This document shows positions 693 to 33,752 of a DNA stretch of 36,351 nt, in pieces. A program made the translations under genes and the position numbers. The notes under the pieces are model-generated. The model was not told the DNA's origin, ran no database searches, and worked only from the letters and a program-made list of their open reading frames with translations. Origin of the DNA: Escherichia coli (GTDB lineage Bacteria; Pseudomonadota; Gammaproteobacteria; Enterobacterales; Enterobacteriaceae); NCBI RefSeq assembly GCF_017348835.2, contig NZ_CP072313.1; one strand, 5' to 3'. Every line of letters starts with the position of its first letter. Position 1 is the first letter of the stretch.

Positions 693-1123
693 TTTTAATC
701 TCCTGTCCGTTTGGACTTAAGAAGGAAAGGAGCCTGTCCCCTTTCGATGAAACAATAATACATCTATTTGGATGTATCATCAAGATTTCTGGCCTGAAAA
801 ACGGTAAATTATTTGGTGGTTGCACGCTTTTTATCCGCGCCAGCGGATGGAAGGGGCGAACGAAAAAACCAGGGGAGCACAAGAGCCACATCGCCCCGGG
901 GCGCGGCAACGCCGCTACTGTTATCAACCGGAACCAGGGATACCCTCCCGCCCTGCTAAGCCCGACTGACTCACAGACAACGATGACGCTGATTTGCGCC
1001 GCAGAATGCCGCAGTTAGCGCTCGCGCCAGCGAGTTTACGCCGTCCAGGGTTTACTTGGACGGGGCGCTGTACTGCGCGTGTGAGCGTCAGCGAGCTACG
1101 GGTGCAACACACCAGAAGTTAAA
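693..1123 (+). repeat. type-A module copy 1: conserved 5'UTR plus promoter plus about 300-bp GC-rich structured element
   Basis: aligns along its length with 2453-2866 and 4523-4950; GC-rich core also matches 21376-21657; contains hairpins ATCCGC-GCCA-GCGGAT and CCGTCCAGG-loop-CCTGGACGG. Confidence 0.8.
755..783 (-). promoter_or_regulatory. sigma70-type promoter of module A1 (-35 TTGATG, 17-bp spacer, -10 TATTAT on the minus strand)
   Basis: hexamers read on the reverse complement; near-identical promoter repeated at 2515-2543 and 4585-4613; A/T-rich UP-like sequence just upstream. Confidence 0.55.
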
Positions 1124-1409
1124 CCGCTCTTAATATGGTTTGCATTAAAATCTTTCTTGACGAATCCTCATTAATATCACACTTGAAGGAAATTATTTTT
1201 ATTGCTCTCTTTTTCAGAGCGCTTTTTATTTGAACTGTTGATAATAAATCCTTGTAAATCGGATGAAGATAAACCCCATATTTATCTTCAAAAGCTCTAT
1301 CAATTTTTGATGCATTCATAATAGCATCAAAACAATTATCATCATCCACAGGGCAAGCTGTCCAAAACATCATTTCAACAGCCATTTTCTTAGCTTCATT
1401 AATCATCAT
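1119..1409 (-). CDS. hypothetical protein (96 aa)
   Basis: ORF in the track; its stop codon lies inside the conserved 3' end of element A1 (CCAGAAGTTAA). Confidence 0.5.
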   Translation of the reverse strand: MMINEAKKMAVEMMFWTACPVDDDNCFDAIMNASKIDRAFEDKYGVYLHPIYKDLLSTVQIKSALKKRAIKIISFKCDINEDSSRKILMQTILRAV

Positions 1410-1470
1410 CCCCCCTTTTATTACTTAAGGCGACTATAGTTACATATAGCACTTTTGTCTCAATATATGA

Positions 1471-1497
1471 AGGGGCGGAAATGCCCCTTTTTATTTA
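1471..1497 (-). terminator. hairpin AGGGGC-GGAAAT-GCCCCT with adjacent T/A runs (terminator candidate, possibly bidirectional)
   Basis: inverted repeat read directly; followed by TTTTTATTT on the plus strand. Confidence 0.3.
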
Positions 1498-1632
1498 AAA
1501 CATTTCATACCCTTGCAAGTAGTTTAACCACCACCGAAATTGATCCCACTCACTAAACGTCATTGCTGGAATTCTGGTTTCCCAGCCTTTGACAAGAGAA
1601 TCAGCAAGCTGTACGATCTGCCGAGTTGACAT
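1495..1632 (-). CDS. small hypothetical ORF (45 aa, MSTRQIVQLADSLVKGWETRIPAMTFSEWDQFRWWLNYLQGYEMF), not in the ORF track
   Basis: ATG preceded by GAGG about 8 nt upstream on the minus strand; too short for the 60-aa track cut-off. Confidence 0.3.
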   Translation of the reverse strand: MSTRQIVQLADSLVKGWETRIPAMTFSEWDQFRWWLNYLQGYEMF

Positions 1633-1710
1633 TTAAAAACCTCATTATTCAGTTTTGATTGTCGATAACGTGATCAGGTTGGTGGAACAACCTGATCACA
1701 CCTTGAATAG

Positions 1711-2076
1711 TCAGTCATTACCCTCCTTCTTTTCTATAGTTACTGTGTATCCGTAAAGGGTCAAAATGCGATAAGCATCCAACGCCTCACGCTCACTTTT
1801 AAATGTTCTGACTTCGTGTAATCCATTACCTTTATCAAGGGATACACAAAACTCATAATCTTCTTCTACTTCTATCTTTTTAATTAATTTATCAAGTTCG
1901 GCTAATGTTCGTTTTGGCTCAAAAAGAAATGTGCATTGTACAATGGCGTTTAAACCTTCCCGATCAAGCTCTAACAGAGCATCATTATAAGCAGCTTTAA
2001 AACAGCGATTATTACGCAGATCAGATGCAAACTGCATTGCGGCTTGTTTTAACGTTTTCATGAATTTCCCTTGCAT
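1711..2076 (-). CDS. hypothetical protein (121 aa)
   Basis: ORF in the track; co-oriented with module genes; followed by a 12-bp inverted repeat (GTGATCAGGTTG...CAACCTGATCAC) at 1669-1697. Confidence 0.5.
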   Translation of the reverse strand: MQGKFMKTLKQAAMQFASDLRNNRCFKAAYNDALLELDREGLNAIVQCTFLFEPKRTLAELDKLIKKIEVEEDYEFCVSLDKGNGLHEVRTFKSEREALDAYRILTLYGYTVTIEKKEGND

Positions 2077-2152
2077 TGATGTTAATAGACAATTTCAGAA
2101 TCAATATTGAAATTTCCAGAAAATGCAGGGTTCCCCCCTGCATTTATAATGC

Positions 2153-2452
2153 TTAACGAAGGCACTCAATAAAATCTTTAAAACTCAAGCATTCATCGCC
2201 ATCTTTTAACGAATCAAAATATTTTTCATATTCGTCCCTATAGAAAAGGACTAAATCAACATCACTCTGCTTAAGTTCGCCAAACTGAGGAACAATTCCG
2301 GTTTTATAGTCACGAATTTTATTGTTATCAGTAAATATGACAACATACTGTTGTCCCGTATCTTTATGGATAAGGGCAATAGTGCAAAGTGTTACTCGTT
2401 CTAATGTGAAAACATAGTTTGTGGTTGAGGTAAAAACAGGTGAGCATTTCAT
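2153..2452 (-). CDS. hypothetical protein (99 aa), first gene downstream of module A2 promoter
   Basis: ORF in the track; preceded by the conserved 5'UTR and Shine-Dalgarno of the type-A module. Confidence 0.5.
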   Translation of the reverse strand: MKCSPVFTSTTNYVFTLERVTLCTIALIHKDTGQQYVVIFTDNNKIRDYKTGIVPQFGELKQSDVDLVLFYRDEYEKYFDSLKDGDECLSFKDFIECLR

Positions 2453-2866
2453 TTAAAATCTCCTGTCCGTTTGGACTTAAGAAGGAAAGGAGCCAATCCC
2501 CTTTCGATGAAACAATAATACATCTATTTAGATGTATTATCAAGATTTCTGGCCTGAAAAACGGTAAATTATTTGATGATTGCACGCTTTTTATCCGCGC
2601 CAGCGGATGGAAGGGGCGAACGAAAAAACCAGGGGAGCACAAGAGCCACATCGCCCCGGGGCGCGGCAACGCCGCTACTGCTATCGACCGGAACCTGGAC
2701 CACCTTCCCCGTCCTGCTAAGCCCGACTGACTCAAAGGCAACGATGGCGCTGATTTGCGCCGCAGAATGCCGCAGTTAGCGCTCGCGCCAGCGAGTTTAC
2801 GCCGTCCAGGAAAACCTGGACGGGGCGCTGTACTGCGCGTGTGAGCGTCAGCGAGCTACGGGCGCA
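2453..2866 (+). repeat. type-A module copy 2
   Basis: near-identical to 693-1123 and 4523-4950; hairpin loop variant CCGTCCAGG-AAAA-CCTGGACGG. Confidence 0.8.
2515..2543 (-). promoter_or_regulatory. sigma70-type promoter of module A2 (-35 TTGATA, 17-bp spacer, -10 TATTAT)
   Basis: same architecture and near-identical sequence as 755-783. Confidence 0.55.
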
Positions 2867-3113
2867 ATTGCTCATTGATTTCGTTGTGCGTCATGTTGCC
2901 CCTTTTACAAAGGACGTATTCAGGGTGTTCTCCAGCAAGCAATAACAGATACTCAAATTCACCTTTTGACAAATTTAATTGGTTGTGGGTTTTTGCTTCC
3001 TTTTTCTGCCATGTACTTAAGCCTACGCCAAAAATTTCACCGCATTCTGTCTGGGTAAGGCCAATTTTTTTACGTAATTTCTTTATGTTTTCCGGTGTAT
3101 TTTCAATAGTCAT
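2856..3113 (-). CDS. XRE-family helix-turn-helix DNA-binding protein (85 aa), possible antitoxin or regulator
   Basis: HTH signature IKKLRKKIGLTQTECGEIFGVGLSTWQKKE; start overlaps upstream gene by 4 nt; stop codon lies in the conserved end of element A2. Confidence 0.6.
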   Translation of the reverse strand: MTIENTPENIKKLRKKIGLTQTECGEIFGVGLSTWQKKEAKTHNQLNLSKGEFEYLLLLAGEHPEYVLCKRGNMTHNEINEQLRP

Positions 3114-3364
3114 GTTTCATTCTCCTTATATTCTTTCATCATGGTTAAAAGAATACTCTTATCAACAGGTTTTAAACCATTTTTTGTAAAATCTATTGCC
3201 CCAACTTCATTTTCATTAAAAACCAGTTCGCTTAACGTTCTCTTTGTCGTTTTAGTTTTTCCTTCTGTGTACACCTTTGAATAGCTGCTTATTTTTTTTA
3301 CAAAATGATATTTTTCATCAATCATTTCAAGATAATAAGTCAATCGCCCTTTGTTTTTTCTCAT
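3110..3364 (-). CDS. hypothetical protein (84 aa), translationally coupled to the HTH gene
   Basis: ORF in the track; 4-nt overlaps at both ends (3361-3364 and 3110-3113). Confidence 0.5.
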   Translation of the reverse strand: MRKNKGRLTYYLEMIDEKYHFVKKISSYSKVYTEGKTKTTKRTLSELVFNENEVGAIDFTKNGLKPVDKSILLTMMKEYKENET

Positions 3365-3903
3365 AACTGTTTCAAATATCCTGTAATTTTAACAAGTTGA
3401 TCTATGTTCAAGCCCCGAATCTGCAAATCATAACGCTCGCCCTGTTTGATGACTTTACCGTTCAATCCGTTTTCAACTTTAAAGCCTGTCAATGCCCCAT
3501 ACCAGCTTTCAAGCTGGACAAGTTGCGATAACATACCTTTCAGGATCAGAATTTCGTCCTTTTTTACCTCCTGGCTTTTCTCATACTCAATCGCCTGTAA
3601 CACCTCCTGCGAAGCATTTATCAGAATTTTTCGCTCGATATCGGCTGCTATATCAACGGGATTCCGCTTCCTAGATAACGTGCAAACATGATGCGGACTA
3701 CGCCAGGAACGACTGTCCACACTCCCCACAACAGAAAATCGCTCTTTTTCCATCCGAATATGCACGGAGTAATTTTTAAACTGCGGTGATGTCAGTTTTA
3801 TACGAGACGGACAATCATCAAGTTTGTTCACGCGCCAGCCGTTCCCCAAGATACGGCAGACAACTTCAAAGACAGGGTGATATTGTTCAAAAAAAGAGTT
3901 CAT
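3361..3903 (-). CDS. hypothetical protein (180 aa), first gene of a three-gene operon
   Basis: ORF in the track; no family recognised. Confidence 0.5.
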   Translation of the reverse strand: MNSFFEQYHPVFEVVCRILGNGWRVNKLDDCPSRIKLTSPQFKNYSVHIRMEKERFSVVGSVDSRSWRSPHHVCTLSRKRNPVDIAADIERKILINASQEVLQAIEYEKSQEVKKDEILILKGMLSQLVQLESWYGALTGFKVENGLNGKVIKQGERYDLQIRGLNIDQLVKITGYLKQL

Positions 3904-4006
3904 CTGTTTTCCTTTTTGCTACGTGGCAGCTGTTCCCGTCTTTTGGGGTTCGATGCCCTAAAAGACGAGCTGGTTATGATATCGGGGGCTTCTGCCCCCG
4001 TTCCGG

Positions 4007-4522
4007 TTACGCTCTGTTTTCCACGCGTTGCCACCCTGTCGCCCTGCGCTGTCCAGTCGTACCGTATTTTGCGCGGATTTCTTCTATCGTGTGTTCTTCA
4101 CGATTCCAGTAACGTTTATGTTCTTCTGGACGATAAAACCATTGTTTTTTCTTTGCCGCCCATTTACACCCGATTTCTTTTAAAGTTTCTTTATGTGTAA
4201 TGGTATCTCCACTAATCCAGACCCAGTTACCTATAACTTCAAATACCAGACCTGATAAACCAGAAAGAACGTTTAATACTTTTTCCAGGTCGTCACCGTA
4301 ATTATATCGAGAATGTTCATCAGTGCTCTGAAACTGATTAATTTTATCGATGTTAGCCATGAGAAAATCAAAAGCTGCATTTACCGCTTTCATCAGTTCA
4401 GCCCCTAAAGGATTACGATCTGGATGATATTTTAACGCAGCTTTTCTGTATGCTGCTTTGATATCTTTTTCGGTTAATTCACCGGATAACCCAAAAACAT
4501 TTAACGCTTCCTGGATATTCAT
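4007..4522 (-). CDS. J-domain (DnaJ-like) protein, 171 aa, first gene downstream of module A3 promoter
   Basis: N-terminal J-domain with the invariant HPD motif (AAYRKAALKYHPDRNP); C-terminal part unrecognised. Confidence 0.7.
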   Translation of the reverse strand: MNIQEALNVFGLSGELTEKDIKAAYRKAALKYHPDRNPLGAELMKAVNAAFDFLMANIDKINQFQSTDEHSRYNYGDDLEKVLNVLSGLSGLVFEVIGNWVWISGDTITHKETLKEIGCKWAAKKKQWFYRPEEHKRYWNREEHTIEEIRAKYGTTGQRRATGWQRVENRA

Positions 4523-4950
4523 TTCAAATCTCCTGTCCGTTTGGACTTAAGAAGGAAAGGAGCCAATCTCCTTTCGATGAAACAATAATACATCTATTTG
4601 GATGTATTATCAAGGTTTCTGATCTGAAAAACGGTAAATTATTTGATGATTGTCACGCTGTTATCCGCGCCAGCGGATGTAAGGGGCGAACGAAAGTTCC
4701 AGGGTAGCACAGGAGCCACATCGCCCCGAAGCGCGGCAACGCCGCTACTGTTATCAACCGGAACCAGGGAACACCCTCCCGCCCTGCTAAGCCCGACTGA
4801 CTCACAGACAACGATGACGCTGATTTGCGCCGCAGAATGCCGCAGTTAGCGCTCGCGCCAGCGAGTTTACGCCGTCCAGGGTTTCCCTGGACGGGGCGCT
4901 GTACTGCGCGTGTGAGCGTCAGCGAGCTACGGGCGCAACACGCCAGAAGT
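4523..4950 (+). repeat. type-A module copy 3
   Basis: near-identical to 693-1123 and 2453-2866. Confidence 0.8.
4585..4613 (-). promoter_or_regulatory. sigma70-type promoter of module A3 (-35 TTGATA, 17-bp spacer, -10 TATTAT)
   Basis: same as the promoters at 755-783 and 2515-2543. Confidence 0.55.
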
Positions 4951-5104
4951 TAAGCAGCCCTCATTGGCATCCCCACGACCTGAAGGACGTGGGGTTACGT
5001 CGCATTTGACAGGGATTCCCCATGTAAATCTTAAAGATTCCTGTTGAACATCTTAAATACTTCTGTAGTATACCTATAGTAATTACCTAACAGGGGAGAC
5101 AGTA

Positions 5105-5770
5105 ATGGCTATTTATGCAATATCAATATCAAAAGGTGGGGTGGGAAAAACCACATCTGCTGTACATATAATCGATGAAATAAAGCCTGACGTTGTTTTC
5201 GATCTGGATTTACACCACAGCCTGAGCATAATTAACAGACTGCGACCAGCTGAAAAAAAATGGTCAATAGTGACAGTTTCAGACAAAGCAGAATTGCTCA
5301 CATATCTGAAAAAAATAAATGACGAAGGAAAAACGGCAGTTATCGACTGCGGGGGGTTTGATGCTGATATTAACCGCATCGCTATAGCTGTTGCTGATGT
5401 GATCATCGTTCCGGCAAATGACGATGTTACTGAGCAGATCGGACTTGCCACCTTCGATGCCGTCCTCGCCGAAATATCCAGACAAACAGGCAGAAATATA
5501 CAGGCCCATGTTCTGATGTGTAAAACACAACCTAATCAGAAAAACTTCCCTGATATGGACGATACAATGAAAAAGGTTAAACATATGGCGCTACTGAACG
5601 CTCGCTTATCATATCGTAAAGGACGCTATGGTTTTACCGATTCTTTGCGTAAAGGAATGGGGATAACCCAAATTAAGCATGGTCGTAGTTCACAGGCAGG
5701 ACGAGAAGTTATAGAGCTTGTAAAAGAATTACGCGCTTTATCTTCAGATAACACAGGTTTTCCTGCATAA
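5105..5770 (+). CDS. parA: ParA-family partition ATPase (small ParF-like)
   Basis: deviant Walker A box KGGVGKTT near the N-terminus; followed by a small RHH-like gene; GGAG Shine-Dalgarno. Confidence 0.8.
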   Translation: MAIYAISISKGGVGKTTSAVHIIDEIKPDVVFDLDLHHSLSIINRLRPAEKKWSIVTVSDKAELLTYLKKINDEGKTAVIDCGGFDADINRIAIAVADVIIVPANDDVTEQIGLATFDAVLAEISRQTGRNIQAHVLMCKTQPNQKNFPDMDDTMKKVKHMALLNARLSYRKGRYGFTDSLRKGMGITQIKHGRSSQAGREVIELVKELRALSSDNTGFPA

Positions 5771-5842
5771 ACCCCAAGAGAACCTTAAAGAAACACAAAG
5801 GATTTACCATAGATATCTTAAGGATTCATAAAGGATTTCCGC

Positions 5843-6082
5843 ATGAAAAACAAGCAATCCATTTTTGATGCCGCTCTCAATATTGGTAACGAAGCGCCTT
5901 TACAGGTAAAAAACGAAACGCCAAAACAACGGACGGTCAGAACAAAAACACTAAAAGCCATACCGACAAGATATTTTGATGCACACCTGAAATTAAGAGA
6001 AACAAATAAAACGAATCTCGATTTTTCCAATTACATAATGGAAGCACTACGGGAAAAACTGGAAAAGGATGGCGGACTTTAA
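5843..6082 (+). CDS. ParG-like ribbon-helix-helix centromere-binding protein (79 aa)
   Basis: position directly after parA; basic N-terminal tail and C-terminal RHH-like segment (NLDFSNYIMEALREKLEK). Confidence 0.55.
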   Translation: MKNKQSIFDAALNIGNEAPLQVKNETPKQRTVRTKTLKAIPTRYFDAHLKLRETNKTNLDFSNYIMEALREKLEKDGGL

Positions 6083-6236: not shown

Positions 6237-6491
6237 ATGAAGATTACAACTCTATCCAGTCGGGAACTGAATCAGGATGTAACCAGGGCCAAACGCGCCA
6301 CAAGTGATGGTCCCGTATTTATTACGGATCGGGGTAAAACCGCGCACGTACTTCTTAGTATCGAAGAATACAGGAAATTAACGCAACAACGGCGAACTCT
6401 TATTGACATCCTGGCTATGCCTGATGCTGATGATGTTGAATTTGAACCGCAGCGAATTAATGTTGGTTTAAAACCAGCGGAGTTTTTGTAG
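6237..6491 (+). CDS. vapB: type II antitoxin, Phd/YefM-VapB type
   Basis: N-terminal antitoxin fold pattern (VFITDRGKTAHVLLSIEEYRKL); start of the next gene abuts its stop. Confidence 0.8.
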   Translation: MKITTLSSRELNQDVTRAKRATSDGPVFITDRGKTAHVLLSIEEYRKLTQQRRTLIDILAMPDADDVEFEPQRINVGLKPAEFL

Positions 6492-6907
6492 TGTATATTC
6501 TTGATACAAATGTTATTTCTGAGCTACGAAAGGCCCGTACGGGACGTATAGATAATAATGTTGCAAAATGGGCATTGCATACAGACGCGGCAGATTTCTT
6601 TGTATCTGTTATTACCATAATGGAACTTGAACAGGGAATATTACAGGTTGAGCGTCGAGATATACGCCAGGGGATTATGTTACGTTCCTGGATGGACCAG
6701 CATGTGTTACCAGCGTTTTCTGATAAGATACTTCCTGTAGATACTGCGGTTGCCTTACGTTGTGCTCGGTTACATGTTCCCGACAGACGCAGTGAACGAG
6801 ACGCATTAATAGCGGCAACAGCTCTGGTTCATGGGATGACCGTTGTCACCAGAAATGTTGGTGATTTTGAATTAAGCGGAGTATCAATTATTAATCCCTG
6901 GGATTGA
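6491..6907 (+). CDS. vapC: PIN-domain toxin VapC
   Basis: N-terminal MYILDTNVISE PIN signature with conserved acidic residues; classic antitoxin-toxin arrangement. Confidence 0.85.
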   Translation: MYILDTNVISELRKARTGRIDNNVAKWALHTDAADFFVSVITIMELEQGILQVERRDIRQGIMLRSWMDQHVLPAFSDKILPVDTAVALRCARLHVPDRRSERDALIAATALVHGMTVVTRNVGDFELSGVSIINPWD

Positions 6908-7193: not shown

Positions 7194-7300
7194 TTTTTAA
7201 TTCTCCGCAACAATACGAAATCATATAGTAATTTACTATATGATTTATCTTTGGCAAGTAATTAACTTATCTGATTTCTTCCATTGGTAAGGGGGCTTTT

Positions 7301-7554
7301 GATGTCGCGCCAGCGACATGTAAGGCGGTACGCTGTGGTTACATGTGGAACTGGAGTAAAACCGCCGAAGCCCGGCGTAAGCCGGTACTGATTGATAGAT
7401 TTCACCTTACCTATCCCCATCCTGCTAAGCCATACCCGCTTTCAGCCATGACGGAGTTTCTGTGCGCGGTCGGAGTGGTCCCGACAAGGGTTTACCCGAA
7501 GTCGGGGCGTATCTCCGCGTTAGCGGGCCGTTAGGGCCGCTTACGAGCGTGTAT
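7301..7554 (+). repeat. type-C structured element copy 1; inverted partner at 35981-36235
   Basis: about 95% identical to the reverse complement of 35981-36235; shares the 5' hairpin and CTGCTAAGCC core with types A and B. Confidence 0.8.
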
Positions 7555-8148: not shown

Positions 8149-9204
8149 CTAGTGGGGTGGAGAAGCTGTCAGGGCCAGTTCAAGCTGACGTAGATCCCTG
8201 GCTACCAGTTGCTCTAATCTTTCTTTAGTGCACCAGTACGCTTCGTCCGGCGACATACGCTTCAGAATAAACCGTGCAATTTCGTTTCGCTGTTCATCAT
8301 ACGGCAGTTTTGCAAGGCGATTGGCACGTTTGCGCTTTGCTGCTTTCTCTCGTCGGAACTTGATGGCATCGAGAGAACGCTGCGCATACCAGCGTTTACG
8401 AGCCGAGTGAACAGAGATTTCCTCGCCCTCGCGGATAACGCCTTCTTTAATCAGTTGCAGACGGATTTCACTTTCTGCAAGGCGCTTACGTTGCTGTTCC
8501 TGAAGTTTCACCAGATCAACTCCCAGCATTTTCCAGCCAGTTTCGGTGATCCAGACGTATTTCGGCAGTCGCTGGCGGGATTCACGGTCCCATATCGTCT
8601 TTTCTGACGTTCCCAACGTGCCAAAGGAAACCTGCTCTGCCAGCAGACGGGAAAGGCGCGATACTGTGACTGCGGTTTCAGGAATAACGTTTCCCTTACT
8701 GTCTTTTGGGCTTATTTCTTCTGCCAGGCGGGAGACAGACATGCCGACAGTGTGCAATCCACGATCACAAAAACTCACAAGTACAACCCATATTGCGTCA
8801 AGCAGCCGCTGTTTCTCCGGTCGGAATTTATATTTGCGACCGACACTCTGACGTTTCAGTACATAAAATGGATGCAACGACATATGCATTCTGAGTGTGT
8901 ACTGACCAGTGACCGGGTCTTTTTTAACGAGACGATTGTAAGCGTGGCCCAACTGTCCGCCCAGCGCCTTATAGCTGTCGGGACGGAACCAGGCTGGATT
9001 CTCACACTTTGGCTTAGTGGAATGTTCACCACGGCGGCGCTTCGTGCTCCGTTTTTCCGGTTCAACCAGAAATGACGTGGCCCTGCCCGATTCGTAATCC
9101 TCCCAGAAAAGGATTTGCTCTTCGGGAGACAGTTCACTCCAGTGTAATGAAGGCCTGTTCAGGGAAGCCATAAGCAATCGCTTATGGCAGAGCTTGATTC
9201 GCAC
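8149..9204 (-). CDS. repA: plasmid replication initiator RepA (IncFII/IncI-complex RepA family)
   Basis: overall resemblance to RepA1/RepZ-type initiators; GTG start at 9204, alternative ATG at 9171; terminator and DnaA box downstream, antisense-RNA-like hairpin upstream. Confidence 0.7.
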   Translation of the reverse strand: MRIKLCHKRLLMASLNRPSLHWSELSPEEQILFWEDYESGRATSFLVEPEKRSTKRRRGEHSTKPKCENPAWFRPDSYKALGGQLGHAYNRLVKKDPVTGQYTLRMHMSLHPFYVLKRQSVGRKYKFRPEKQRLLDAIWVVLVSFCDRGLHTVGMSVSRLAEEISPKDSKGNVIPETAVTVSRLSRLLAEQVSFGTLGTSEKTIWDRESRQRLPKYVWITETGWKMLGVDLVKLQEQQRKRLAESEIRLQLIKEGVIREGEEISVHSARKRWYAQRSLDAIKFRREKAAKRKRANRLAKLPYDEQRNEIARFILKRMSPDEAYWCTKERLEQLVARDLRQLELALTASPPH

Positions 9205-10315: not shown

Positions 10316-10600
10316 ATGTCACAAGCAAAAGCAAACCTGAAGAAATTACGTCATCACTGTTATATTCCACCAAAACAAAAAATATCCAGACTGTATTATG
10401 TTGAAAAAGCCTTAAGTTCTCCCTGGATATATCGTGAACGGCCTGCATACAGAGCAGAGTTGCTACTTACACATGACACACTGCTTGTTATTTATGGCCT
10501 GGCAAAATCCGGCCTGATTGACCGTTCTGAGGAATCACTCAACAGAGAAATCAAAGGGGTCCGAAAAGCGCTCGCAGCCGGACGTTTCCGTTGGTCGTGA
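10316..10600 (+). CDS. hypothetical protein (94 aa) upstream of the T4SS
   Basis: ORF in the track; stop codon immediately followed by element B1. Confidence 0.45.
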   Translation: MSQAKANLKKLRHHCYIPPKQKISRLYYVEKALSSPWIYRERPAYRAELLLTHDTLLVIYGLAKSGLIDRSEESLNREIKGVRKALAAGRFRWS

Positions 10601-10799
10601 GATGCCGCGCCAGCGGCATGTAAGGCGGCACTCTGTACTTAAATATGGCTTTGCGGGTTATCCGCCGAAGCCCCGCGCCAGCGGGTACTGTCTTCTATAT
10701 TCTCTGGAACTGCGCTCGCGCCCCCTGCTAAGCCCAAAACGCACGGAACCAACAGCTACACGGTTGTTTCTGGTCGAAGACCGACACTGCTGAAGCGAT
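10601..10799 (+). repeat. type-B structured element copy 1
   Basis: hairpin ATGCCGC-GCCA-GCGGCAT, then TAAGGCGG, CCGCCGAAGCC, CTGCTAAGCC, TTGTTTCTGGTCGAAGA; starts at the stop codon of the upstream gene. Confidence 0.8.
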
Positions 10800-14974: not shown

Positions 14975-15175
14975 TAGCATGCCGCACAAGCGGCATGTAA
15001 GGCGGCACTCTGTACTTTAATATGGCTTTGCGGGTTATCCGCCGAAGCCCCGCGCCAGCGGGTACTGTCTTCTATATTCTCTGGAACTGCGCTCGCGCCC
15101 CCTGCTAAGCCAAAACCGCACGAAACCAACAGCCACGCGGCTGTTTCTGGTCGAAGACTGACAATCTTAAAGCGA
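14975..15175 (+). repeat. type-B structured element copy 2
   Basis: hairpin ATGCCGC-ACAA-GCGGCAT and downstream conserved blocks; sits between virB4 and virB5. Confidence 0.8.
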
Positions 15176-26198: not shown

Positions 26199-26786
26199 AT
26201 GTACCTACATATTGTCCCTAAACTTTTTCATCGCATGGCGAACAAATGCACTCTAAAATCCATCTCCATACCTGAACTTGATTTAATAATTGATGGCGAA
26301 TCATTGTCTGTAGGGAGGCCGTGGCCTAACAAATGTTTGTGGGTTGGAATGCGGAAAAGCAGAAAGGCAGTTAATGGACTTCTTTTGCATACAGATAAAA
26401 AACTAAGATGGTTCACTACCAGATATACCTGGGATATTGAAGATATGGGATTAATTCATCATCAGGTTAATACTTATATTGAAGATAATGAATTTGATAT
26501 GGTATCACAGGAAATTCTCTTAAATGGTTCTTTTGATAAGTGGAGTGACAGGGTGCATTCAGCTTATGAAGGTAAGCCTCCAGCAATAATCCAGCCCAAA
26601 ATGGAATCATTTTTAAAAAGACCAGGTGAAGACAGTCATGATATGTGGGAGGAGTTCGAGTGGGGTAACTTCCTCATATCAAGAGAAGAAAGCCTTTTAC
26701 TTCACACTATTCAGTCTGAACGATTGAATACAGATTGTTCTTTATTCAAAAGACAACCGTCTATTGAAAGTGCATTAGTTATATAA
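26199..26786 (+). CDS. hypothetical protein (start taken at ATG 26199; the ORF track starts at TTG 26169)
   Basis: AGGAAA Shine-Dalgarno 8 nt before the ATG; no family recognised. Confidence 0.5.
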   Translation: MYLHIVPKLFHRMANKCTLKSISIPELDLIIDGESLSVGRPWPNKCLWVGMRKSRKAVNGLLLHTDKKLRWFTTRYTWDIEDMGLIHHQVNTYIEDNEFDMVSQEILLNGSFDKWSDRVHSAYEGKPPAIIQPKMESFLKRPGEDSHDMWEEFEWGNFLISREESLLLHTIQSERLNTDCSLFKRQPSIESALVI

Positions 26787-26810
26787 ATCAGATACTCTTT
26801 GGTGGTTATT

Positions 26811-27386
26811 ATGCAATATGCATTGTTTGATGGATTTGAACGAAAGTTTTTGCTGGATGCTCTTGAATTTGGTGTTCTGAAGGACTGGAAAAAAAATCCG
26901 GTAAAAGAACTTCCTGATATTGATGAATCTGTTCACCCCTTCCATGTCTGCTATGGTGGATATTTATTAAATCCTAGTGTTTCAGATTCTGATATTAGCA
27001 GAAAAATAAAAGACCAGACAGGATTCTGGCTGGCAGCTATTGATGACACCCGCATGGATTGTCATTCAATAGCTTATTATGATATTCACACACTCCCTAT
27101 GATTTCGTGTGGTCATCAGAAGATAGTTCCTTTTGCCGCGTTAATAAAAGCTGATGAATGCATCATTTCAAAAATTGCTTCGTATTCTGGTTTTGCTGTA
27201 ACAGCCTTTTTGAGAATTAAAGACTGGGATATTGCAACTAATATACTTAACCGTGAGGGAATTTTTGCCTTTAATGGCTGTGAGCGCAGATTCAAACAAC
27301 CTGTAAGTGAAGATAACTGGCAACAGGAAGTATCAGAAGAACGCGCTATCCGTTGTGCCAAAAGATTAATTCAATGTAAAGGATAA
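26811..27386 (+). CDS. hypothetical protein (start taken at ATG 26811; the ORF track starts at TTG 26799)
   Basis: GGTGG Shine-Dalgarno 5 nt before the ATG; ends 4 nt before topB. Confidence 0.5.
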   Translation: MQYALFDGFERKFLLDALEFGVLKDWKKNPVKELPDIDESVHPFHVCYGGYLLNPSVSDSDISRKIKDQTGFWLAAIDDTRMDCHSIAYYDIHTLPMISCGHQKIVPFAALIKADECIISKIASYSGFAVTAFLRIKDWDIATNILNREGIFAFNGCERRFKQPVSEDNWQQEVSEERAIRCAKRLIQCKG

Positions 27387-27390
27387 CAAA

Positions 27391-29553
27391 ATGAAACTTT
27401 TTATTGCAGAAAAACCCGCAGTAGCAAATGATATTGTTAAGGCTCTTGGGGGCAATTTCACCCGTCATGATGGCTGGTTTGAAAGTGATAATGCCATTGT
27501 GACTAACTGCTTTGGTCATATTATCGAATCACAGCCACCGGAAAACTATAATCCTGATTACAAAGCCTGGAAAGTTGAAACACTCCCTTTACGTCTTTAC
27601 CCCGTCAAATATCAGCCAGTAGAAAGTGCCGCAAAGCAGGTTAACACAATTCTTGAGCTTATCAGACGTGGAGACGTGACTGAAATTGTTCATGCTGGCG
27701 ACCCTGATGAAGAAGGTCAGCTACTTGTTGATGAAGTTCTGGAATATGCGGGGAACACAAAACCCGTTAAGCGCGTTCTGATTAACGACAACACGCTTCC
27801 GGCAGTGAAAAAGGCACTGGCAAATCTTAAAGATAATCGTGATTTCAAAGGGCTTTACCTTAAGGCGCTGGCGCGTTCAGTTGCTGATGCCGTCTATGGC
27901 TTCTCTATGACGCGTGCTTACACAATCCCGGCAAAAACTAAAGGCTATAAAGGTGTTTTGTCTGTCGGACGGGTCCAGACACCCGTGCTTGGCCTGATTG
28001 TGAATCGTACCCGCGCTAACCAGAACCATAAATCCAGTTTTTACTACACCATGACCGGAGTCTTTCAGCGTGGTGCTGATGTTATCAGGGCGAACTGGAA
28101 GCCAGGGGAATTTGCTCCGCTGACAGACCGTAAATTACTTGATAAAGCGTGGGCAGACGGAACGGCAGCATCCCTTGCAGGAAAACCGGCTACAGTTGAA
28201 GCGGCAGCAACTGATGATAAAAAAACGGCTGCGCCGTTGCCGTTTAACCTGGTCAGACTCCAGCAATACATGAACAAGAAGTTCAAAATGACGGCACAAA
28301 AAACGCTGGATATTACGCAACAACTACGCGAAAAATATAAAGCAATTACTTATAACCGCTCTGATTGCTCATATCTTTCTGATGAACAATTCAGCGAAGC
28401 GCCGCAGGTTATCGATGCCCTGAAATCAGTCTTTCCTCAGTCGCTGGATATTGATTCTGCACGTAAAAGCAAAGCGTTTAACAGTGCAAAGGTGACTGCG
28501 CATACTGCGATAATCCCGACCGCCAGTGTGCCTGATGTTAACGCACTCAGCACCGACGAGCGCAATGTTTACCTGGCGATCGCACAACACTATCTTGTTC
28601 AGTTCATGCCTGAAAAAGCATACCAGGAAGTATCGGTTGCCATTCAGTGTGGTGATGAGTCGTTCTATGCCCGTGCCAGAAAAACAACTGACAGCGGATT
28701 TGAGGCGTTTCTTGGCGCGGAAACCACAGACGAAGGTGAATCAGAAGATAATGATGATTCCGCTTTTGAACAGCTTTGCAAAATTCGCACTGGTGAAACA
28801 CTGACAACAAAAGAAGTTGTTGTTAATGAGAAGAAAACAACACCGCCGCCGTTATTCACCGAAGCCTCCTTGCTTGCTGCGCTTGTTCGTGTCGCGGATT
28901 TTGTCACTGATCCAGTGATTAAAAAATTACTGAAGGATAAGGATAAAGACAAAAAAGATGAACATGGCGGTATTGGTACGCCAGCTACACGCGCTGCCAT
29001 TCTGGAAGCGCTGAAGAAGAGAAATTATATCACGCTGGAAAAAGGGAAACTTATTCCGACGGATACCGGATGTGCGCTTATTGATGCCCTACCAGGTATA
29101 GCGGTTAATCCTGATATGACAGCATTATGGTCTGAAAAACAGTCTGCCATTGAAAATGGCGACCTGACGGTTGAACAGTTTATTAATGATCTGTACGGTG
29201 AACTGACAGGCATGATTTCTGATGTTGACCTGGGCGAAATGAAAATTGAACCCGCAGCGCCAGCCGGACAATCTCCACGCCTGAGTTCTCCCTGCCCTTC
29301 CTGTGGTAAAGCGATTATTATCAGACCAAAAGGTTATTTCTGTACAGGATGTGAATTTAAAATCTGGAAAAATTTTTCTGGTAAAGCATTATCCGATAAG
29401 CAAGTGGAAACACTTGTTACAAAAGGTATTACCGGAGAATTAAAAGGATTTGTTAGTTCAAAAACGAATAAGAATTTCTCGGCTAAGGTTAAACTTGTTG
29501 ATAAAACGGCCGGAAAGCTGGGATTTGAATTTACCCACAAAAAATCAATATAG
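27391..29553 (+). CDS. topB: DNA topoisomerase III (TopB)
   Basis: 720 aa; Toprim-type N-terminus MKLFIAEKP; C-terminal zinc-ribbon Cys pairs (CPSCGK...CTGCEFK). Confidence 0.9.
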   Translation: MKLFIAEKPAVANDIVKALGGNFTRHDGWFESDNAIVTNCFGHIIESQPPENYNPDYKAWKVETLPLRLYPVKYQPVESAAKQVNTILELIRRGDVTEIVHAGDPDEEGQLLVDEVLEYAGNTKPVKRVLINDNTLPAVKKALANLKDNRDFKGLYLKALARSVADAVYGFSMTRAYTIPAKTKGYKGVLSVGRVQTPVLGLIVNRTRANQNHKSSFYYTMTGVFQRGADVIRANWKPGEFAPLTDRKLLDKAWADGTAASLAGKPATVEAAATDDKKTAAPLPFNLVRLQQYMNKKFKMTAQKTLDITQQLREKYKAITYNRSDCSYLSDEQFSEAPQVIDALKSVFPQSLDIDSARKSKAFNSAKVTAHTAIIPTASVPDVNALSTDERNVYLAIAQHYLVQFMPEKAYQEVSVAIQCGDESFYARARKTTDSGFEAFLGAETTDEGESEDNDDSAFEQLCKIRTGETLTTKEVVVNEKKTTPPPLFTEASLLAALVRVADFVTDPVIKKLLKDKDKDKKDEHGGIGTPATRAAILEALKKRNYITLEKGKLIPTDTGCALIDALPGIAVNPDMTALWSEKQSAIENGDLTVEQFINDLYGELTGMISDVDLGEMKIEPAAPAGQSPRLSSPCPSCGKAIIIRPKGYFCTGCEFKIWKNFSGKALSDKQVETLVTKGITGELKGFVSSKTNKNFSAKVKLVDKTAGKLGFEFTHKKSI

Positions 29554-29684
29554 TATCTAATGACACGTCTGAAGTATCCGATTAACCAGGGGTGGTTTGT
29601 CGACTTTAGATTGTGCCATATATGGAGTTGTTAGAAGAAAAGGGACTTCCTCCGGTCGGAGCCACCAACTCAAGGCCGGAAAAC

Positions 29685-29716
29685 AAAAAAGCCCGATTAC
29701 CAGTCGGGCTTTTTTG
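29685..29716. terminator. bidirectional rho-independent terminator between convergent topB and relaxase genes
   Basis: AAAAAA-AGCCCGA-TTACCAG-TCGGGCT-TTTTTT; works on both strands. Confidence 0.6.
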
Positions 29717-29723
29717 TTTCTGA

Positions 29724-32700
29724 TTAACGGGACCGCGTGTTATCCCTGTTTCTTTCCCGTTCACGCTCATTTTTCAAAGCGTTGTCATAACTCACTATTT
29801 CACGCTTCACGGCCTCTACCGTTTCAGGTTTTTTCATTGCTGCCTTGAGATCGTTTACATCCTCAAAACGTATGAATTTGAGCGTATCTTTGACTGTTTG
29901 TTTGTCAATATTCATTTCCTTCGCCAGTTGCTTAGAAATTCGCTCAATTTCTCTTTCCATCGCTTTTTCACTATTGACAGTCCGCTTTTTCTTTTCTGTA
30001 GTATTCTCGTTTTTTTCCTCGACTGATTTAGCTTTTTTCTGCCCTTGTTGTTCCTCAAAGGCTTTAATCTGTTCATTAATCGTCTGAGCACGGGCCGAAA
30101 TACTGTTAACCCCTTTCGAAAGCAGATCAACCTCTTCTTTCGGCGCACCATTTTCTACAGCTTCATTCAGTAAACGCTGGGCTTCCTGGTGCTGGCTGGC
30201 AATAACTTTTGCCTCTTCCTGTAGCTGCTGTAGCGATGCGTTATTTTGCTGATGAGGATTTTCAGTGGCTAACGCGGATTTGCTTTGCTCATCTCCGGTC
30301 TGTTTATCCTGACCAGTAGTCACGTCTTTCTCTGTTACCGGCTTCTGTTGCTGCGCTTCTTGTGGCTGCTGCTCGCGTTCTTCAGAATGAGCCGAAACGT
30401 TCTGCTGCACAGACTCCTGTTTTTCCGCTTCCTGTACCACGGATGTTTCAGACGTGGATTTTTGAGAAACAGTTTCTGACTTAACAGGCTGTTCCGGCAC
30501 TGCATCACGCGATTTATCATCATTATGTACAGATTCCGCTACTTCGGGCGTTCTTTCCTTAGCCTGGGTGTCTTTCTCGACTGAATTAACCTGCTCTGCT
30601 CTCTTTTCCTGCTCCTGTTCTGGTTTCTGTCCGGCGACTTGTTGCTGACGCTCTGCCTCGACGCTGTTTTCATGTCCATGTTCAGCTTTCAGTTCCTGGA
30701 GGCGGACCTGCATCATTTCATGATATTTTTCAGGTCGCAGAATAACATTCATCCCCTTCTCGGCTGCCGCCATTGCACAGGCTACCTTAAATTCTTCCGA
30801 GCCATTGAGTTTCAGCATCCCACCAAATTTCTCTTTTGCATAAAGAAGGGCTGCTTCAGCTTTATCCTGGGTAATTTCACCATTTACACGAACATGATTT
30901 CCTTTATCAGTGAAAACAGTCTGTGTTGTCTTCGGATCAAGGTAACGCGTTTCTTTTGGGCTGACCTTATGAGGAACAAGATCGGTTAGTTCACGTTTTA
31001 CATAATCCTGAACTTGCTGGGATTGCTGTACTCGCTTAACTACGCTGAAAACTTCCTTTTCATTACCGGAAGAAATGCTGTTTCCATCAACCGGATTACG
31101 GATTATCTTTTTTAAAGAATCACCTAAAGCCATATCATATCTCCTGTCTGGATTCCAACGGTGATAGTATGAGTTTATTTCGCGAAAACATGCCTTTCGA
31201 ATTGAGTTTATTTCACTCTCTCTTTCCAGCTTTTTAAATATAATGTACCCTCTAGCAACCTCCCGTTCCTGCTTGTTTCTTATCGCCAGAAGCCCTCTGA
31301 GTTCTGCCCTGTAATTAGCTATATTATCATTATGCTTATATTTAATCTCATTATTTACCCAACCTTTATGTTCATTTAAACAAATAAATCTTTCTTTTGC
31401 CTGTTGACGCGTAAGATTTACACGGGTAATAACAGCATCAAAAGGTTTGTTATCTTTCTGATCCTGCCAGATATCAAGTAATACCTCTTTTGCCTCATCC
31501 CATTCAAGATTCAGATGTTTAGTTAAAAAATCACTGGCATTCATATTTCGATTGCCAACTCTGAAACGCGGAGATCCATCCTGTCCATAGGTGACAGTAT
31601 GCTTTGATGGATCTATGTTAAAGCGTGTTTGCAGATTGGACAAATAACGTTCAGCATTAATTTCTGTGCGAATTTGTTTCAAAAAAGGTAAATCATCACT
31701 GCGCTGAATCGCCGCTTTAATATTTGATTCAAGCGCTGACTGAACTACTCTTCTTCCTGCTCTATCCTGCAACCGTCGCACATATCGATCTGGATCGACT
31801 TTTTGTCGTCCAGCCGTTGATAAATAACCGTATTCATTTTGCTGCAATAACAACTGAGATTTATTAATGCTTTTCCCACCTGATCTTCCGTGAAGTCCGT
31901 AAACCAGTTTGCGTGCTGGCAGACGTGGCAATCCGATTGTCTTACCGGATACAAACTTTCCGGTATTGTATTTAATACCGGACTGGTCACTATTCTGTCG
32001 TCGGTCCTGTCTTTGAAGGTTGTGTTTTTCGTCATAACGATTAATTACCTTTTTCAGATACATTTGCTTATCTTCACCAGCAAGTGCTGCATATTCTTTA
32101 CGAATTTTTTGCCCTGCCGGATGAATATGTTTTATCTCATGACTGATCGAACTCTTCCAGTCTTTCAGATGACTCTCAATCTGCGTCTTTGTGGGTTTTA
32201 AAAGTGGTATAGTTCGATCAGAGATATACTGACGTGAAAATAAAGGGCTTTTGAGTCGAGTAAATTTAGAGTCTCCTTCGAGCTTCACACCAAAGTAGCG
32301 ATCAGACTTCCCCTTATTATACTCCTTTACCTCACCAAAACGGGAAAGATAATCAGAAAATTGTTTCTCTGTTCGGATATTCTCTGTATCCAGCGCATCA
32401 AAAACCGTGGTTTTAAACTCACTGTGCCGCTCACGGTAAAAATCGCCTTTAGCCCTGGATAATACATTAGCGTGGTTATGGTCACTGACTCTGACACCAT
32501 CTTTAGGAGAAACAAGATTGTATTTATTATTAATGTGCTCCTGTATGGCATCAAGATGTTTCAAATAATGGTTAATAACTCCCCCAGGATTTAGTTTATT
32601 TCCTGTCACCAGATTAACTTCAGGGATAACAATGTGAATGTGAGGCTTACGCTCAACCATTTCTCCTGTTTTATGATCAGGCATCTGTTTTATTTTTGGA

Positions 32701-33011
32701 AGATGCGCTTCCGCATAAAAATTATATTCATCTTCATGATAAGCGTTCATCATGAGAGACTTGTATTCCTGGACTACATCATGCAACTTTGATTCAGAAA
32801 CATCATCTTCAAAAAAGGATAACGTAATATGCATATAGCGCTCTTGACCATTATCAGGTATCGCGTCAATAACTGATTCAGTCAATGCCAGATCGCCATC
32901 CAGAACTAATCGATGGTCAATTTCATCTCGGGTATATTCCCTTCCTTGCTTATGACCTTTTTCAAGGTATTCGCATACCCCCTTATTGCCACCGCTGATT
33001 CTGACTAACAT
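29724..33011 (-). CDS. conjugative relaxase (TaxC/MOB-type) with long Q/E/K-rich C-terminal extension
   Basis: 1095 aa; histidine-triad motif HIHIVIPEVN in the N-terminal domain; adjacent to the accessory gene and putative oriT. Confidence 0.85.
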   Translation of the reverse strand: MLVRISGGNKGVCEYLEKGHKQGREYTRDEIDHRLVLDGDLALTESVIDAIPDNGQERYMHITLSFFEDDVSESKLHDVVQEYKSLMMNAYHEDEYNFYAEAHLPKIKQMPDHKTGEMVERKPHIHIVIPEVNLVTGNKLNPGGVINHYLKHLDAIQEHINNKYNLVSPKDGVRVSDHNHANVLSRAKGDFYRERHSEFKTTVFDALDTENIRTEKQFSDYLSRFGEVKEYNKGKSDRYFGVKLEGDSKFTRLKSPLFSRQYISDRTIPLLKPTKTQIESHLKDWKSSISHEIKHIHPAGQKIRKEYAALAGEDKQMYLKKVINRYDEKHNLQRQDRRQNSDQSGIKYNTGKFVSGKTIGLPRLPARKLVYGLHGRSGGKSINKSQLLLQQNEYGYLSTAGRQKVDPDRYVRRLQDRAGRRVVQSALESNIKAAIQRSDDLPFLKQIRTEINAERYLSNLQTRFNIDPSKHTVTYGQDGSPRFRVGNRNMNASDFLTKHLNLEWDEAKEVLLDIWQDQKDNKPFDAVITRVNLTRQQAKERFICLNEHKGWVNNEIKYKHNDNIANYRAELRGLLAIRNKQEREVARGYIIFKKLERESEINSIRKACFREINSYYHRWNPDRRYDMALGDSLKKIIRNPVDGNSISSGNEKEVFSVVKRVQQSQQVQDYVKRELTDLVPHKVSPKETRYLDPKTTQTVFTDKGNHVRVNGEITQDKAEAALLYAKEKFGGMLKLNGSEEFKVACAMAAAEKGMNVILRPEKYHEMMQVRLQELKAEHGHENSVEAERQQQVAGQKPEQEQEKRAEQVNSVEKDTQAKERTPEVAESVHNDDKSRDAVPEQPVKSETVSQKSTSETSVVQEAEKQESVQQNVSAHSEEREQQPQEAQQQKPVTEKDVTTGQDKQTGDEQSKSALATENPHQQNNASLQQLQEEAKVIASQHQEAQRLLNEAVENGAPKEEVDLLSKGVNSISARAQTINEQIKAFEEQQGQKKAKSVEEKNENTTEKKKRTVNSEKAMEREIERISKQLAKEMNIDKQTVKDTLKFIRFEDVNDLKAAMKKPETVEAVKREIVSYDNALKNERERERNRDNTRSR

Positions 33012-33409
33012 TTATTAATCCCTGCAACAAACGCATCACGAATATTAACAAGAACATTAAGATAGCGTAAATATGTACTTTCTGAAATAAAACCATTGCG
33101 ATATTCTGTGTTAATTTTTTTGGCTATCTGATTAATATTATTGCTTGACTTATTAAAAAGTCTGAGTAATTCTCTGTATTCAACTGGACGTTTTTGTTTC
33201 AAAGTCGGAATATCATCCAGACGATTCAGTATAACCATCCGAAAAAACTCACTACGACTGACTTCAAGAGATGTAAAATACTCATGAAATGACTGATATT
33301 CCTCATCAGTCAATCGCAGTGATATCACATGTTTTCTCTCCACCTTTGATGTGGAAGCTACAGCCTTTTTTCCTTTGTCTTGTTTTTTCATGGTTCGTAG
33401 AACCTCCAT
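33005..33409 (-). CDS. relaxosome accessory protein (TaxA-like, probable RHH DNA-binding)
   Basis: small basic protein immediately upstream of and overlapping the relaxase gene; start may be at ATG 33391. Confidence 0.6.
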   Translation of the reverse strand: MEVLRTMKKQDKGKKAVASTSKVERKHVISLRLTDEEYQSFHEYFTSLEVSRSEFFRMVILNRLDDIPTLKQKRPVEYRELLRLFNKSSNNINQIAKKINTEYRNGFISESTYLRYLNVLVNIRDAFVAGINKC

Positions 33410-33560
33410 ATAGCGACCTGGTTGTAGAGATATACTGGGGTATTAGGGGGAGATCCCCCTAAGCACGTCGATTATACCGGAATTTATTCCGTGTATACAT
33501 CGCTGTCGTGCCTGTGTCTTGTAGTAAGATCAATTGAACAAGTCACAAGCCCACATTACA
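33410..33560. other. putative origin of transfer (oriT)
   Basis: intergenic between divergent relaxase operon and stb-like genes; perfect inverted repeat TTAGGGGG-AGAT-CCCCCTAA at 33443-33462; second repeat CGGAAT-TTA-TTCCG nearby. Confidence 0.5.
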
Positions 33561-33700: not shown

Positions 33701-33752
33701 TTAAATAAAGTACTGTGCCAATGTAGGAGGTATGAGAGAGGAAACATAACAA

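Follow-up and report, generated by a model that had tools for sequence, protein, structure and literature searches.

Conserved upstream (CUP) repeats of ~0.4 kb have been described from the IncN leading region, for plasmids pKM101 and R46 (Delver and Belogurov, 1997, as cited in PMC3490853, PMC5371602, and PMC6289460), and recombination between their copies deletes, inverts, or rearranges modules (PMC3490853; PMC5371602). In the plasmid F, ssiE was experimentally isolated as a single-strand initiation sequence (ssi) (Nomura et al., 1991; D90180). Here we describe a family of repeated elements, with copies A1 to A4, in a stretch of 36,351 nucleotides from Escherichia coli (contig NZ_CP072313.1; hereafter the window), which is, or closes into, a complete plasmid of ~36.4 kb. 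On balance, each element seems to be a composite "establishment unit" of the leading region, the counterpart in IncI2 and IncX plasmids of the IncN CUP. The whole account, in which a priming signal is joined to a promoter, the upstream genes are packed tightly against this unit, and the repeats recombine, is one that we cautiously favor.

Three full copies of a direct repeat of ~415 bases were found in the window (A1, 693-1107; A2, 2453-2867; A3, 4523-4938; all given on the + strand). They share one orientation, lie within ~8 kb of the presumed origin of transfer (oriT), and stand directly upstream of the operon-starting ATG codons at 692, 2452, and 4522 on the - strand. The same placement at the heads of operons was also seen in IncI2 and IncX1/4/6 plasmids and in one IncFII plasmid. 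Read along the + strand, a unit would comprise the template of a 58-nt leader with its ribosome-binding site (RBS), a promoter with its operator, and two folded domains, D1 and D2. In A1, the leader and RBS (693-754, -) are fused to the ATG (690-692) of a 77-aa gene, and the sigma-70-like promoter (755-783, -; TTGATG-17-TATTAT) has a palindrome, 755-764/771-780, in its spacer. Domain D1 of this copy (833-962, +) holds the hairpin H1 (833-848), a second hairpin with TACTG (901-920), and CCCTGCTAAGCC (951-962). Domain D2 (994-1107, +), delimited by covariation and fold, is closed by a helix between TTGCGCC (994-1000) and GGTGCAA (1101-1107). The corresponding parts are found at 2453-2514 (leader), 2515-2543 (promoter, -), 2593-2723 (D1), and 2755-2867 (D2) in A2, and at 4523-4584, 4585-4613 (-), 4663-4793, and 4825-4938 in A3. 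The fourth copy, A4 (21383-21657, +), consists of the core only (D1 and D2) and lies between virB11 and the coupling-protein gene, on the same DNA strand as A1-A3, though here the neighboring genes are on the + strand.

The end of the element, GAGCTACGGGCGCAA (2853-2867 in A2), was invariant or nearly so in 22 of 22 copies from eight plasmids. A scan of genome contigs with a 17-mer gave mostly chance matches; those in four contigs (L011, L089, L090, and L102) were real and yielded the copies of Erwinia dacicola, which share only D2 with the core of the window and have a related promoter-leader, so that the parts of the element are separable. In one IncI2 plasmid the core is coupled to another promoter type. 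Literature searches for these repeats in IncI2 and IncX plasmids found no report, and the elements match no Rfam family at either the gathering or the E-value threshold. In the IncFII (MOBF) plasmid AP027895.1 (L007), five element copies occur with a J-domain operon in the leading region, and one copy (16074-16238/17406-17663) is interrupted by an IS110-family insertion. In the IncI2 plasmid pAH65-1 (L005), the copy upstream of the J-domain gene (5637-5894) has an internal deletion, which fuses ...GAAGCGCGGCG to CTGTACTGCG.... The join runs from the hairpin of D1 to the D2 TACTG and suggests that the deletion took place between two short motifs of the kind "GC hairpin + TACTG."

The promoter-proximal part of the element is nearly constant in its dimensions. 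In the eight plasmids, the leader with its RBS spans 56-59 nt from a fixed motif to the ATG and precedes at least six unrelated first genes, which encode a J-domain protein, a 99/97-aa family, and 77-aa, 90-aa, 109-aa, and 107-aa proteins. A hairpin ahead of the Shine-Dalgarno sequence occurs in the compensatory variants GTCCaaacGGAC, GCCCagcaGGGC, and GCCGctcaGCGGC. A sigma-70-like promoter, TTGATA/G-17-TATTAT, was predicted on the - strand of every copy, with -35 and -10 boxes conserved across lineages. Its 17-bp spacer is a palindrome in every copy and differs between lineages (ATACATC/GATGTAT, ATACGAC/GTCGTAT, TAGGTCA/TGACCTA, ATACCTCA/TGAGGTAT, and, in R6K, TACCATCA/TGATGGTA). Thus, in five lineages, five palindromes lie between conserved boxes and are matched by five variants of a small XRE-type helix-turn-helix (HTH) protein. 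This covarying pattern indicates that the palindrome and the HTH protein are probably an operator-repressor pair. The plasmid has no homologue of ArdK, the CUP repressor, and the HTH protein is unrelated to ArdK. A2 carries the window-type operator despite its IncX4-like cargo. In R6K (L134), a compact 96-nt promoter-palindrome-leader (23891-23985; TTGTAA, TACCATCAtaTGATGGTA, TATACT) follows directly after the HTH stop. R6K thus has the promoter, operator, and leader without the GC-rich core, and this coreless form is likely the simpler ancestral state of the unit.

The fold of the core was derived from an alignment of 13 diverse GC-rich cores, and 500 shuffles and slid alignments served as controls. 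The consensus contained 65 pairs, with 99.2% of the cells paired and compensatory changes at 10 pairs. None of the 500 shuffles reached the observed values, and only 28-45% of the cells were paired in the slid controls. The consensus has two domains. D1 comprises the H1 hairpin, the second hairpin with TACTG, and CCCTGCTAAGCC; covariation was found in H1, which A4 keeps through three compensatory pairs (GTCTGC/GCAGAC). D2 is a multi-hairpin domain of 114 nt that is almost invariant; it also contains a hairpin followed by ...CTGTACTG, and its closing helix pairs TTGCGCC with GG(C/T)GCAA (helix 216-222/327-333). As single-stranded DNA, D2 alone gave a dG of -37.7 kcal/mol (z -4.1). In the predicted fold, the conserved 3' end of the element (...GCGCAA) is the 3' strand, down to the last base pair, of the D2 closing helix, and conservation stops abruptly at ...GCGCAA because the helix ends there. 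Possible roles of D2 are to serve as a second priming signal, to load a primosome, or to act as a barrier timing the conversion to double strands. Two other candidates were rejected. A helix "H0," which would pair the variable tails past GCGCAA with the region next to the -35 box, had cognate duplex energies no better than the non-cognate ones. The ORFs (open reading frames) across D2 (for example 924-1112, -) were judged noncoding, because 4-nt loop indels break the frame in other lineages.

The relatives of D1 were found through a second family of repeats in the window. A copy of this family lies at 7300-7478 (+), ~670-850 nt downstream of the plasmid's own repA (8149-9204, -), and others at 10600-10788, 14978-15165, 23720-23908, and 35661-35849 (all +; the last ~2 kb after the presumed oriT). 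The sole opposite-strand copy is 36056-36234 (-; profile E 3.8e-48). The family is clearly homologous to ssiE of F (nhmmer E 1.1e-11; ssiE as listed in Supplementary Table 2 of PMC11541004). Further matches are a site adjoining oriT on the transferred strand (T-strand) of F, a site in R6K, and, in over 5000 plasmids, mostly IncF, a site that lies 761 nt past repA (z 23-25), and the window copy at 7300-7478 stands at an equivalent distance from its own repA. A "G site" of the IncFII plasmids R1/R100 was reportedly described by Masai and Arai in 1989. Blastn of this second family against phages gave no match.

D1 and the second family match each other reciprocally by profile (E 6e-5 to 1.3e-3) in colinear blocks. 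The hairpin GCGCGGCaacGCCGC-TACTG, at 901-920, 2661-2680, 4731-4750, and 21451-21470, is invariant in all D1 copies. In phage G4, stem-loop I has GGACGGCGaaaGCCGCCGTCC-CTACTG, where the first base templated for the annotated primer is the T (3997) of CTG, the start trinucleotide of primase. With the G4 oric only this hairpin with CTACTG is shared, and the local alignment of the second family to it was not significant (z<=2.6). We lean toward the view that D1 is a diverged member of the ssiE/IncFII "G-site" family of single-strand initiation signals, as the profile matches suggest.

With A1-A4, the second family makes ten ssi-like elements in this 36-kb plasmid, nine of them on one strand. The copies at 35661-35849 (+) and 36056-36234 (-) face each other, ~200 nt apart, ~2-2.8 kb past the presumed oriT, and the latter belongs to the repA-proximal "G-site" subtype. 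A typical IncI2 plasmid (L005) has only the repA-proximal copy of the second family, and an IncX4 plasmid (L004) has none. Judged by these matches, the proliferation of ssiE/G-site-type repeats is peculiar to this plasmid type.

The strand on which the elements lie bears on their function. The relaxase and its accessory gene occupy 29724-33409 (-), and the presumed oriT region (33410-33752) lies between the accessory gene (33005-33409, -) and the first leading-side gene, a layout that mirrors IncI2. By the orientation of the relaxase, rather than by a mapped nic site, and by analogy with IncI2, we infer that the + strand is the transferred one and that A1-A3 would be among the first 8 kb to enter the recipient. 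The ssi-like elements lie on the + strand in nine of ten cases, though transcription runs leftward at A1-A3 and rightward at A4 and in the type IV secretion system (T4SS) region. The copy at 7300-7478, downstream of repA, is on the template for synthesis leaving the origin. Within the helices on the + strand, 40 G.T cells were counted vs. four A.C cells, a count that is biased because the structure was predicted on this strand. This strand pattern supports, without proving, a function at the DNA level in the T-strand.

A likely course of events would be as follows. When the T-strand enters the recipient, host primase would start a primer at the element, and DNA synthesis would proceed toward the 5' end of the T-strand, through the adjacent promoter and operon. 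The promoter and operon would become double-stranded early, and the promoter would fire in a recipient that is free of repressor. The HTH protein would then accumulate and repress all copies. A bolder form of this scheme, a "prime-to-express" design of IncI2/IncX-type plasmids, is offered only tentatively and is rather doubtful as a whole. In it, D1 and D2 would stand immediately 3', on the template, of each repressor-controlled duplex promoter; Frpo-like promoters would not drive the early genes; CUP would work alike; and D2 would be a new, sequence-specific signal of single-stranded DNA.

An earlier note on this DNA had placed the stop codons of two upstream genes within the conserved 3' ends of the elements. 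For ORF 2856-3113 (-), the claim held family-wide: its stop, TAG at 2856-2858, is 12 nt inside the conserved end GAGCTACGGGCGCAA (last base 2867), and the last three codons and the TAG of this 85-aa HTH gene (2856-2867) lie within the D2 closing helix. For ORF 1119-1409 (-), which encodes a 96-aa protein, it needs restricting, since the TAA at 1119-1121 is 12 nt past the family-wide boundary at 1107 and falls only in a tail of the A1/A3 subtype. This tail of 23 nt, CAC(A/G)CCAGAAGTTAA(A/G)C(C/A)GC(T/C)CT, spans 1108-1130 (+) after A1 and 4939-4961 (+) after A3. The two are identical at 19 of 23 positions. The tail is conserved in one subtype only, and its first 10 nt (CRCRCCAGAA) recur in IncX4-type copies. 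As the earlier note had observed, no ORF is attached to the tail of A3; the next gene is parA at 5105 (+). Past the 23-nt tail, the flank of A3 had no significant similarity to the 96-aa gene (146 of 300 shuffles were as good). The tail may be part of the element subtype or a co-duplicated remnant of the 3' end of the 96-aa gene.

Any ORF that runs into the element from upstream is likely to end there. The first stops that it meets are TAG (+9, frame 0) and TGA (+17, frame 2), and frame 1 is open for at least 133 nt. An ORF without a stop of its own would therefore end in the "conserved end," within 12 or 20 nt, in two of the three frames. What chance leaves unexplained is that the ORFs directly abut the element boundary. 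The conserved core of the HTH family terminates in ...EHP(E/D)Y(V/I)LCKR. In the HTH proteins of Erwinia dacicola (...CKRETLRP, then the stop) and IncX6 (...CKREALHP, then the stop), two codons follow this core, and the last three codons and the TAG come from the D2 closing helix. The HTH protein of the window reaches the same end after a different and longer in-frame spacer (...CKRGNMTHNEINEQLRP, then the stop). The overlap at the same internal TAG is thus shared by three divergent lineages (window, IncX6, and Erwinia). In four plasmids of the IncX1/X4 and IncI2 types, the HTH gene has its own stop, 35-183 nt ahead of the element. Since it recurs in three divergent lineages, the HTH overlap is probably a recurrent, ancestral compaction and not a fresh scar of recombination. 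Homologues of the 96-aa protein (~65% identity) end in ...LRRIEN, two residues later, without an adjacent element, and the TAA of the window gene sits at the gene/tail junction. We therefore incline to explain the stops within the ends by tight packing of upstream genes against the folded domain D2, where two of three frames stop within 20 nt, and not by a special cutting of cassettes. The stop-codon observation would then be a minor consequence of tight packing.

The copies of the element evolve together within each plasmid. They were 91-99.8% alike within a plasmid vs. 73-90% between plasmids, and positional counterparts were only 73-90% identical even where the flanking genes were 91-98% identical. 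By this pattern of identities, the within-plasmid homogeneity is concerted evolution, because direct repeats of ~415 bp undergo gene conversion. It is plausible that homogenization is selected because every operon of a plasmid needs the operator that fits its resident repressor. At least five unrelated types of flank adjoin the distal end, ...GCGCAA. As the earlier note had anticipated, related plasmids carry the same elements beside different cargo with precise junctions, the at least six first genes on the ATG side being matched by these flank types on the distal side.

Exchange between plasmid types could be followed in several comparisons. The window was 97-100% identical to IncX4 mcr-1 plasmids (L004 and L009) over 1666-2365 (121-aa and 99-aa genes), 63-80% in A2, and 45-77% over 2900-3396 (HTH and 84-aa genes), where the HTH and 84-aa genes resemble IncI2 instead of IncX4. 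This points to a recent exchange between this plasmid type and IncX4 over 1666-2365. The IncFII plasmid L007 equals the IncI2 plasmid L005 up to ~4591, a point in the promoter-proximal portion of the element that precedes the J-domain gene, and from there on, within that element, is window-type. The sole difference between L009 and L004 is a conversion patch at 2618-2876, in the right half of one element. Other breakpoints (~1435 and 1704/2169) fall between genes and not near an element. The earlier proposal of recombination at the element ends was not borne out, since crossovers map inside the repeats and these other breakpoints elsewhere. Its idea of a cassette bounded by the element as the unit of exchange survives in part: modules are exchanged and the repeats mark their borders, but no cassette mechanism was found. 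On present evidence, we would sooner explain the exchange of cargo modules by homologous recombination and gene conversion in the repeats, as described for CUP. Crossovers between homologous copies of the direct repeats would carry operon modules from one backbone to another, among IncI2, IncX, and even IncFII.

A strict cassette would require more than this, namely that the elements are attC-like sites or ends of a mobile element, that breakage at these ends is site-specific or transpositional, and that the stops mark the crossover. Both junctions are indeed precise (at least five unrelated flank types at the distal boundary and at least six genes at the ATG), folding as a single strand is a trait in common with attC sites, and in R6K the gene order is the same but the core is missing, as at an "empty" site. 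Nevertheless, we found no recombinase or integrase linked to the elements in the eight plasmids, no consistently adjacent transposase, and no terminal inverted repeats, target duplications, or core sites common to both ends. The crossovers within the repeats, the breakpoints elsewhere, a boundary that is the end of a helix under purifying selection, and the HTH overlap in three divergent lineages all speak against it, and a strict cassette is very improbable. Promoter function in single-stranded DNA deserves more weight, though it is still unlikely. Here the folded core in the T-strand would be recognized directly by RNA polymerase, as Frpo is, and would perhaps also block complementary synthesis. 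The elements have the right position at the heads of leading-region operons, the right orientation for T-strand-templated genes, and a strong fold, and in single-stranded DNA the palindrome of the operator would restore the -10 box as a duplex. New classes of single-stranded promoters without similarity to Frpo have been reported in IncI1 (PMC12672017), the single-stranded promoter of F is a roadblock to conversion (bioRxiv 10.64898/2026.01.09.698686), and Samuel et al. group ssiE with Frpo (PMC11541004). Against this, no similarity to ssiD of F or to Frpo1-3 of ColIb was found (blastn, best 9-14 nt at E>0.5). The folds place no -35/-10 pair in long stems, and an AT-rich segment resembling a -10 box is lacking from the core. 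A near-consensus promoter (-35, 17 bp, -10) with duplex geometry, conserved across lineages, stands outside the core. The promoter occurs without the core in R6K, and A4 has the core without a promoter or a downstream gene. What weakens the Frpo-like reading is the lack of boxes rebuilt in stems, the conserved conventional promoter next to the fold, and the separate occurrence of the two parts in R6K and A4.

The fold might instead act in the minus-sense mRNA, as a structured 3' untranslated region, stabilizer, insulator, or terminator of the upstream operon. In favor, each upstream operon has the core at its 3' end, in three lineages the HTH ORF terminates within the core, and the alifold energies of the minus-sense RNA and the + strand are similar (-80.6 vs. 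-86.7); energy does not decide which strand folds, both being about equal. However, none of the hairpins is followed by a U-tract, the cores contain no predicted terminator-like site, A4 and the copies of the second family lie opposite to local transcription yet on the same DNA strand, the G.T variation in the + strand helices would be A.C in the mRNA, and the relatives of D1 are DNA priming signals. We consider an RNA-level function quite improbable. Several points nonetheless weigh against our preferred reading of the elements as T-strand units with a priming-signal-like domain. Besides the equal fold of the minus-sense RNA, these are the assignment of the T-strand by relaxase orientation, the bias of the G.T/A.C count, and the second-family copy on the other strand (36056-36234). 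The similarity of D1 to ssiE/G-site and CUP sequences is marginal (profile E ~1e-3 to 1e-5), and BLAST searches with the elements gave no hit in published Frpo/ssi sequences, R46, R6K, or the leading region of F, so that the links of D1 come from profiles only. The IncFII site 761 nt past repA is presumably, by its position, the primase-dependent "G site" of R1/R100. Finally, D2 is the best-conserved part and holds the stops, yet it has no relative outside the element family: a D2 covariance model found none in F, R6K, or Tatumella, and in R46 only GC-rich hairpins at E 0.1.

The genes around A1-A3 are all on the - strand. The operon downstream of A1 (80-692) contains the 77-aa gene (459-692) and a CcgAII homologue (80-391). 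The cargo of A2 (1495-2452) comprises a 99-aa gene (2153-2452), a 121-aa gene (1711-2076), and a 45-aa ORF (1495-1632), and the 96-aa gene (1119-1409) is the last in this operon. In the A3 operon, genes for the J-domain protein (4007-4522), a 180-aa protein (3361-3903), and an 84-aa protein (3110-3364) make up 3110-4522, and the 85-aa HTH gene (2856-3113) is encoded last. Across most of its length, the window is ~99.9% identical to the E. coli plasmid pMB9635_3, a plasmid with a replicon of the IncI2 type, a relaxase of MOBP, and a VirB-type T4SS. The sole departure is 24753-29648, which spans the topoisomerase region (93.9% identity with gaps vs. 99.7-100% elsewhere) and is the source of a 533-nt difference in length. 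A Phd/VapC-type toxin-antitoxin pair (6237-6907, +) adjoins parA (5105-5770) and is ordinary plasmid maintenance cargo. The only Rfam family in the window that exceeds its gathering score is AgrB (RF02891, 61.9 bits) at 29631-29716 (+), and in a near-identical record dqlB, a DinQ-like type I toxin, is annotated near the matching position. This region is a plasmid-borne agrB/dinQ-type toxin-antitoxin locus.

Leading regions decide the establishment of a conjugative plasmid in a new host, and IncI2 and IncX4 plasmids are main vehicles of mcr-1. The elements would represent a grammar of such regions, in which a repeated fold resembling a priming signal, an ultra-conserved domain, and a repressible promoter with a standard leader take up unrelated small genes. 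This would explain how modules of early genes pass between incompatibility groups, as in the 97-100% segment shared with IncX4 mcr-1 plasmids. If the tentative "prime-to-express" scheme were true, the promoter and operon would be the first DNA made double-stranded in the recipient.

Among the known systems, the integron gene cassette with its attC site is the most distant, as our elements are ~415 nt long, bear a promoter, lie upstream of genes, and have no linked integrase. The oric of phage G4 has the same hairpin with CTACTG at the primer start, without detectable sequence similarity otherwise. Features common to D1, ssiE, and the G site are the H1 hairpin, GGAAGG(G/C)G, the second hairpin with TACTG, and CCCTGCTAAGCC; the ssiE and replicon G sites are not fused to a D2 or a promoter, whereas D1 is. 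Like the Frpo/ssi of F and ColIb-P9 (Masai and Arai, 1997; PMC11541004; PMC9849209; PMC12672017), the elements are repeated folded T-strand sequences upstream of T-strand-templated leading operons. They differ from Frpo in sequence and in having a conventional promoter beside the fold, not in a stem.

The closest resemblance is to CUP. Each is a set of ~0.4-kb direct repeats that share one orientation and stand at the 5' ends of several operons of the leading region. The promoter-proximal part has a promoter and a repressor site in CUP and a predicted promoter with a candidate operator here. The D1 profile matches three CUP repeats of R46 (E 4e-4 to 1.3e-3) in the colinear blocks ATGCCCgtcaGGGCAT, GGAAGGCG, ATCGCC, and CCCTGCTAAGCC. 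The cargo of A1 includes a homologue of ccgAII, a "CUP-controlled gene" (53% identical to the CcgAII of R46, E 2e-36). In R46 (L006), a D1-like segment and a GC-rich hairpin, as in CUP, also lie past the IncN repA, ~0.5 kb downstream and on the opposite strand (32971-33090, -; 32857-32924, -), and they may be the priming signal of the IncN replicon itself. The differences are that blastn against R46 gave nothing at E<=0.01, that the regulator is of the XRE type instead of ArdK and the operator differs, that CUP has no clear counterpart of D2 (a GC-rich hairpin at the equivalent place, E 0.1), and that the hosts are IncI2, IncX1/X4/X6, and one IncFII plasmid. We found no link between the CUP and the classical ssi/G-site literatures in searchable papers, and the elements would tie the two together. 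Because the D1 profile matches the CUP copies and a CcgAII homologue is among the cargo, the elements are, in our judgment, rather best filed as the IncI2/IncX counterpart of the IncN CUP, with the GC-rich part of both apparently related to ssiE and the G site.

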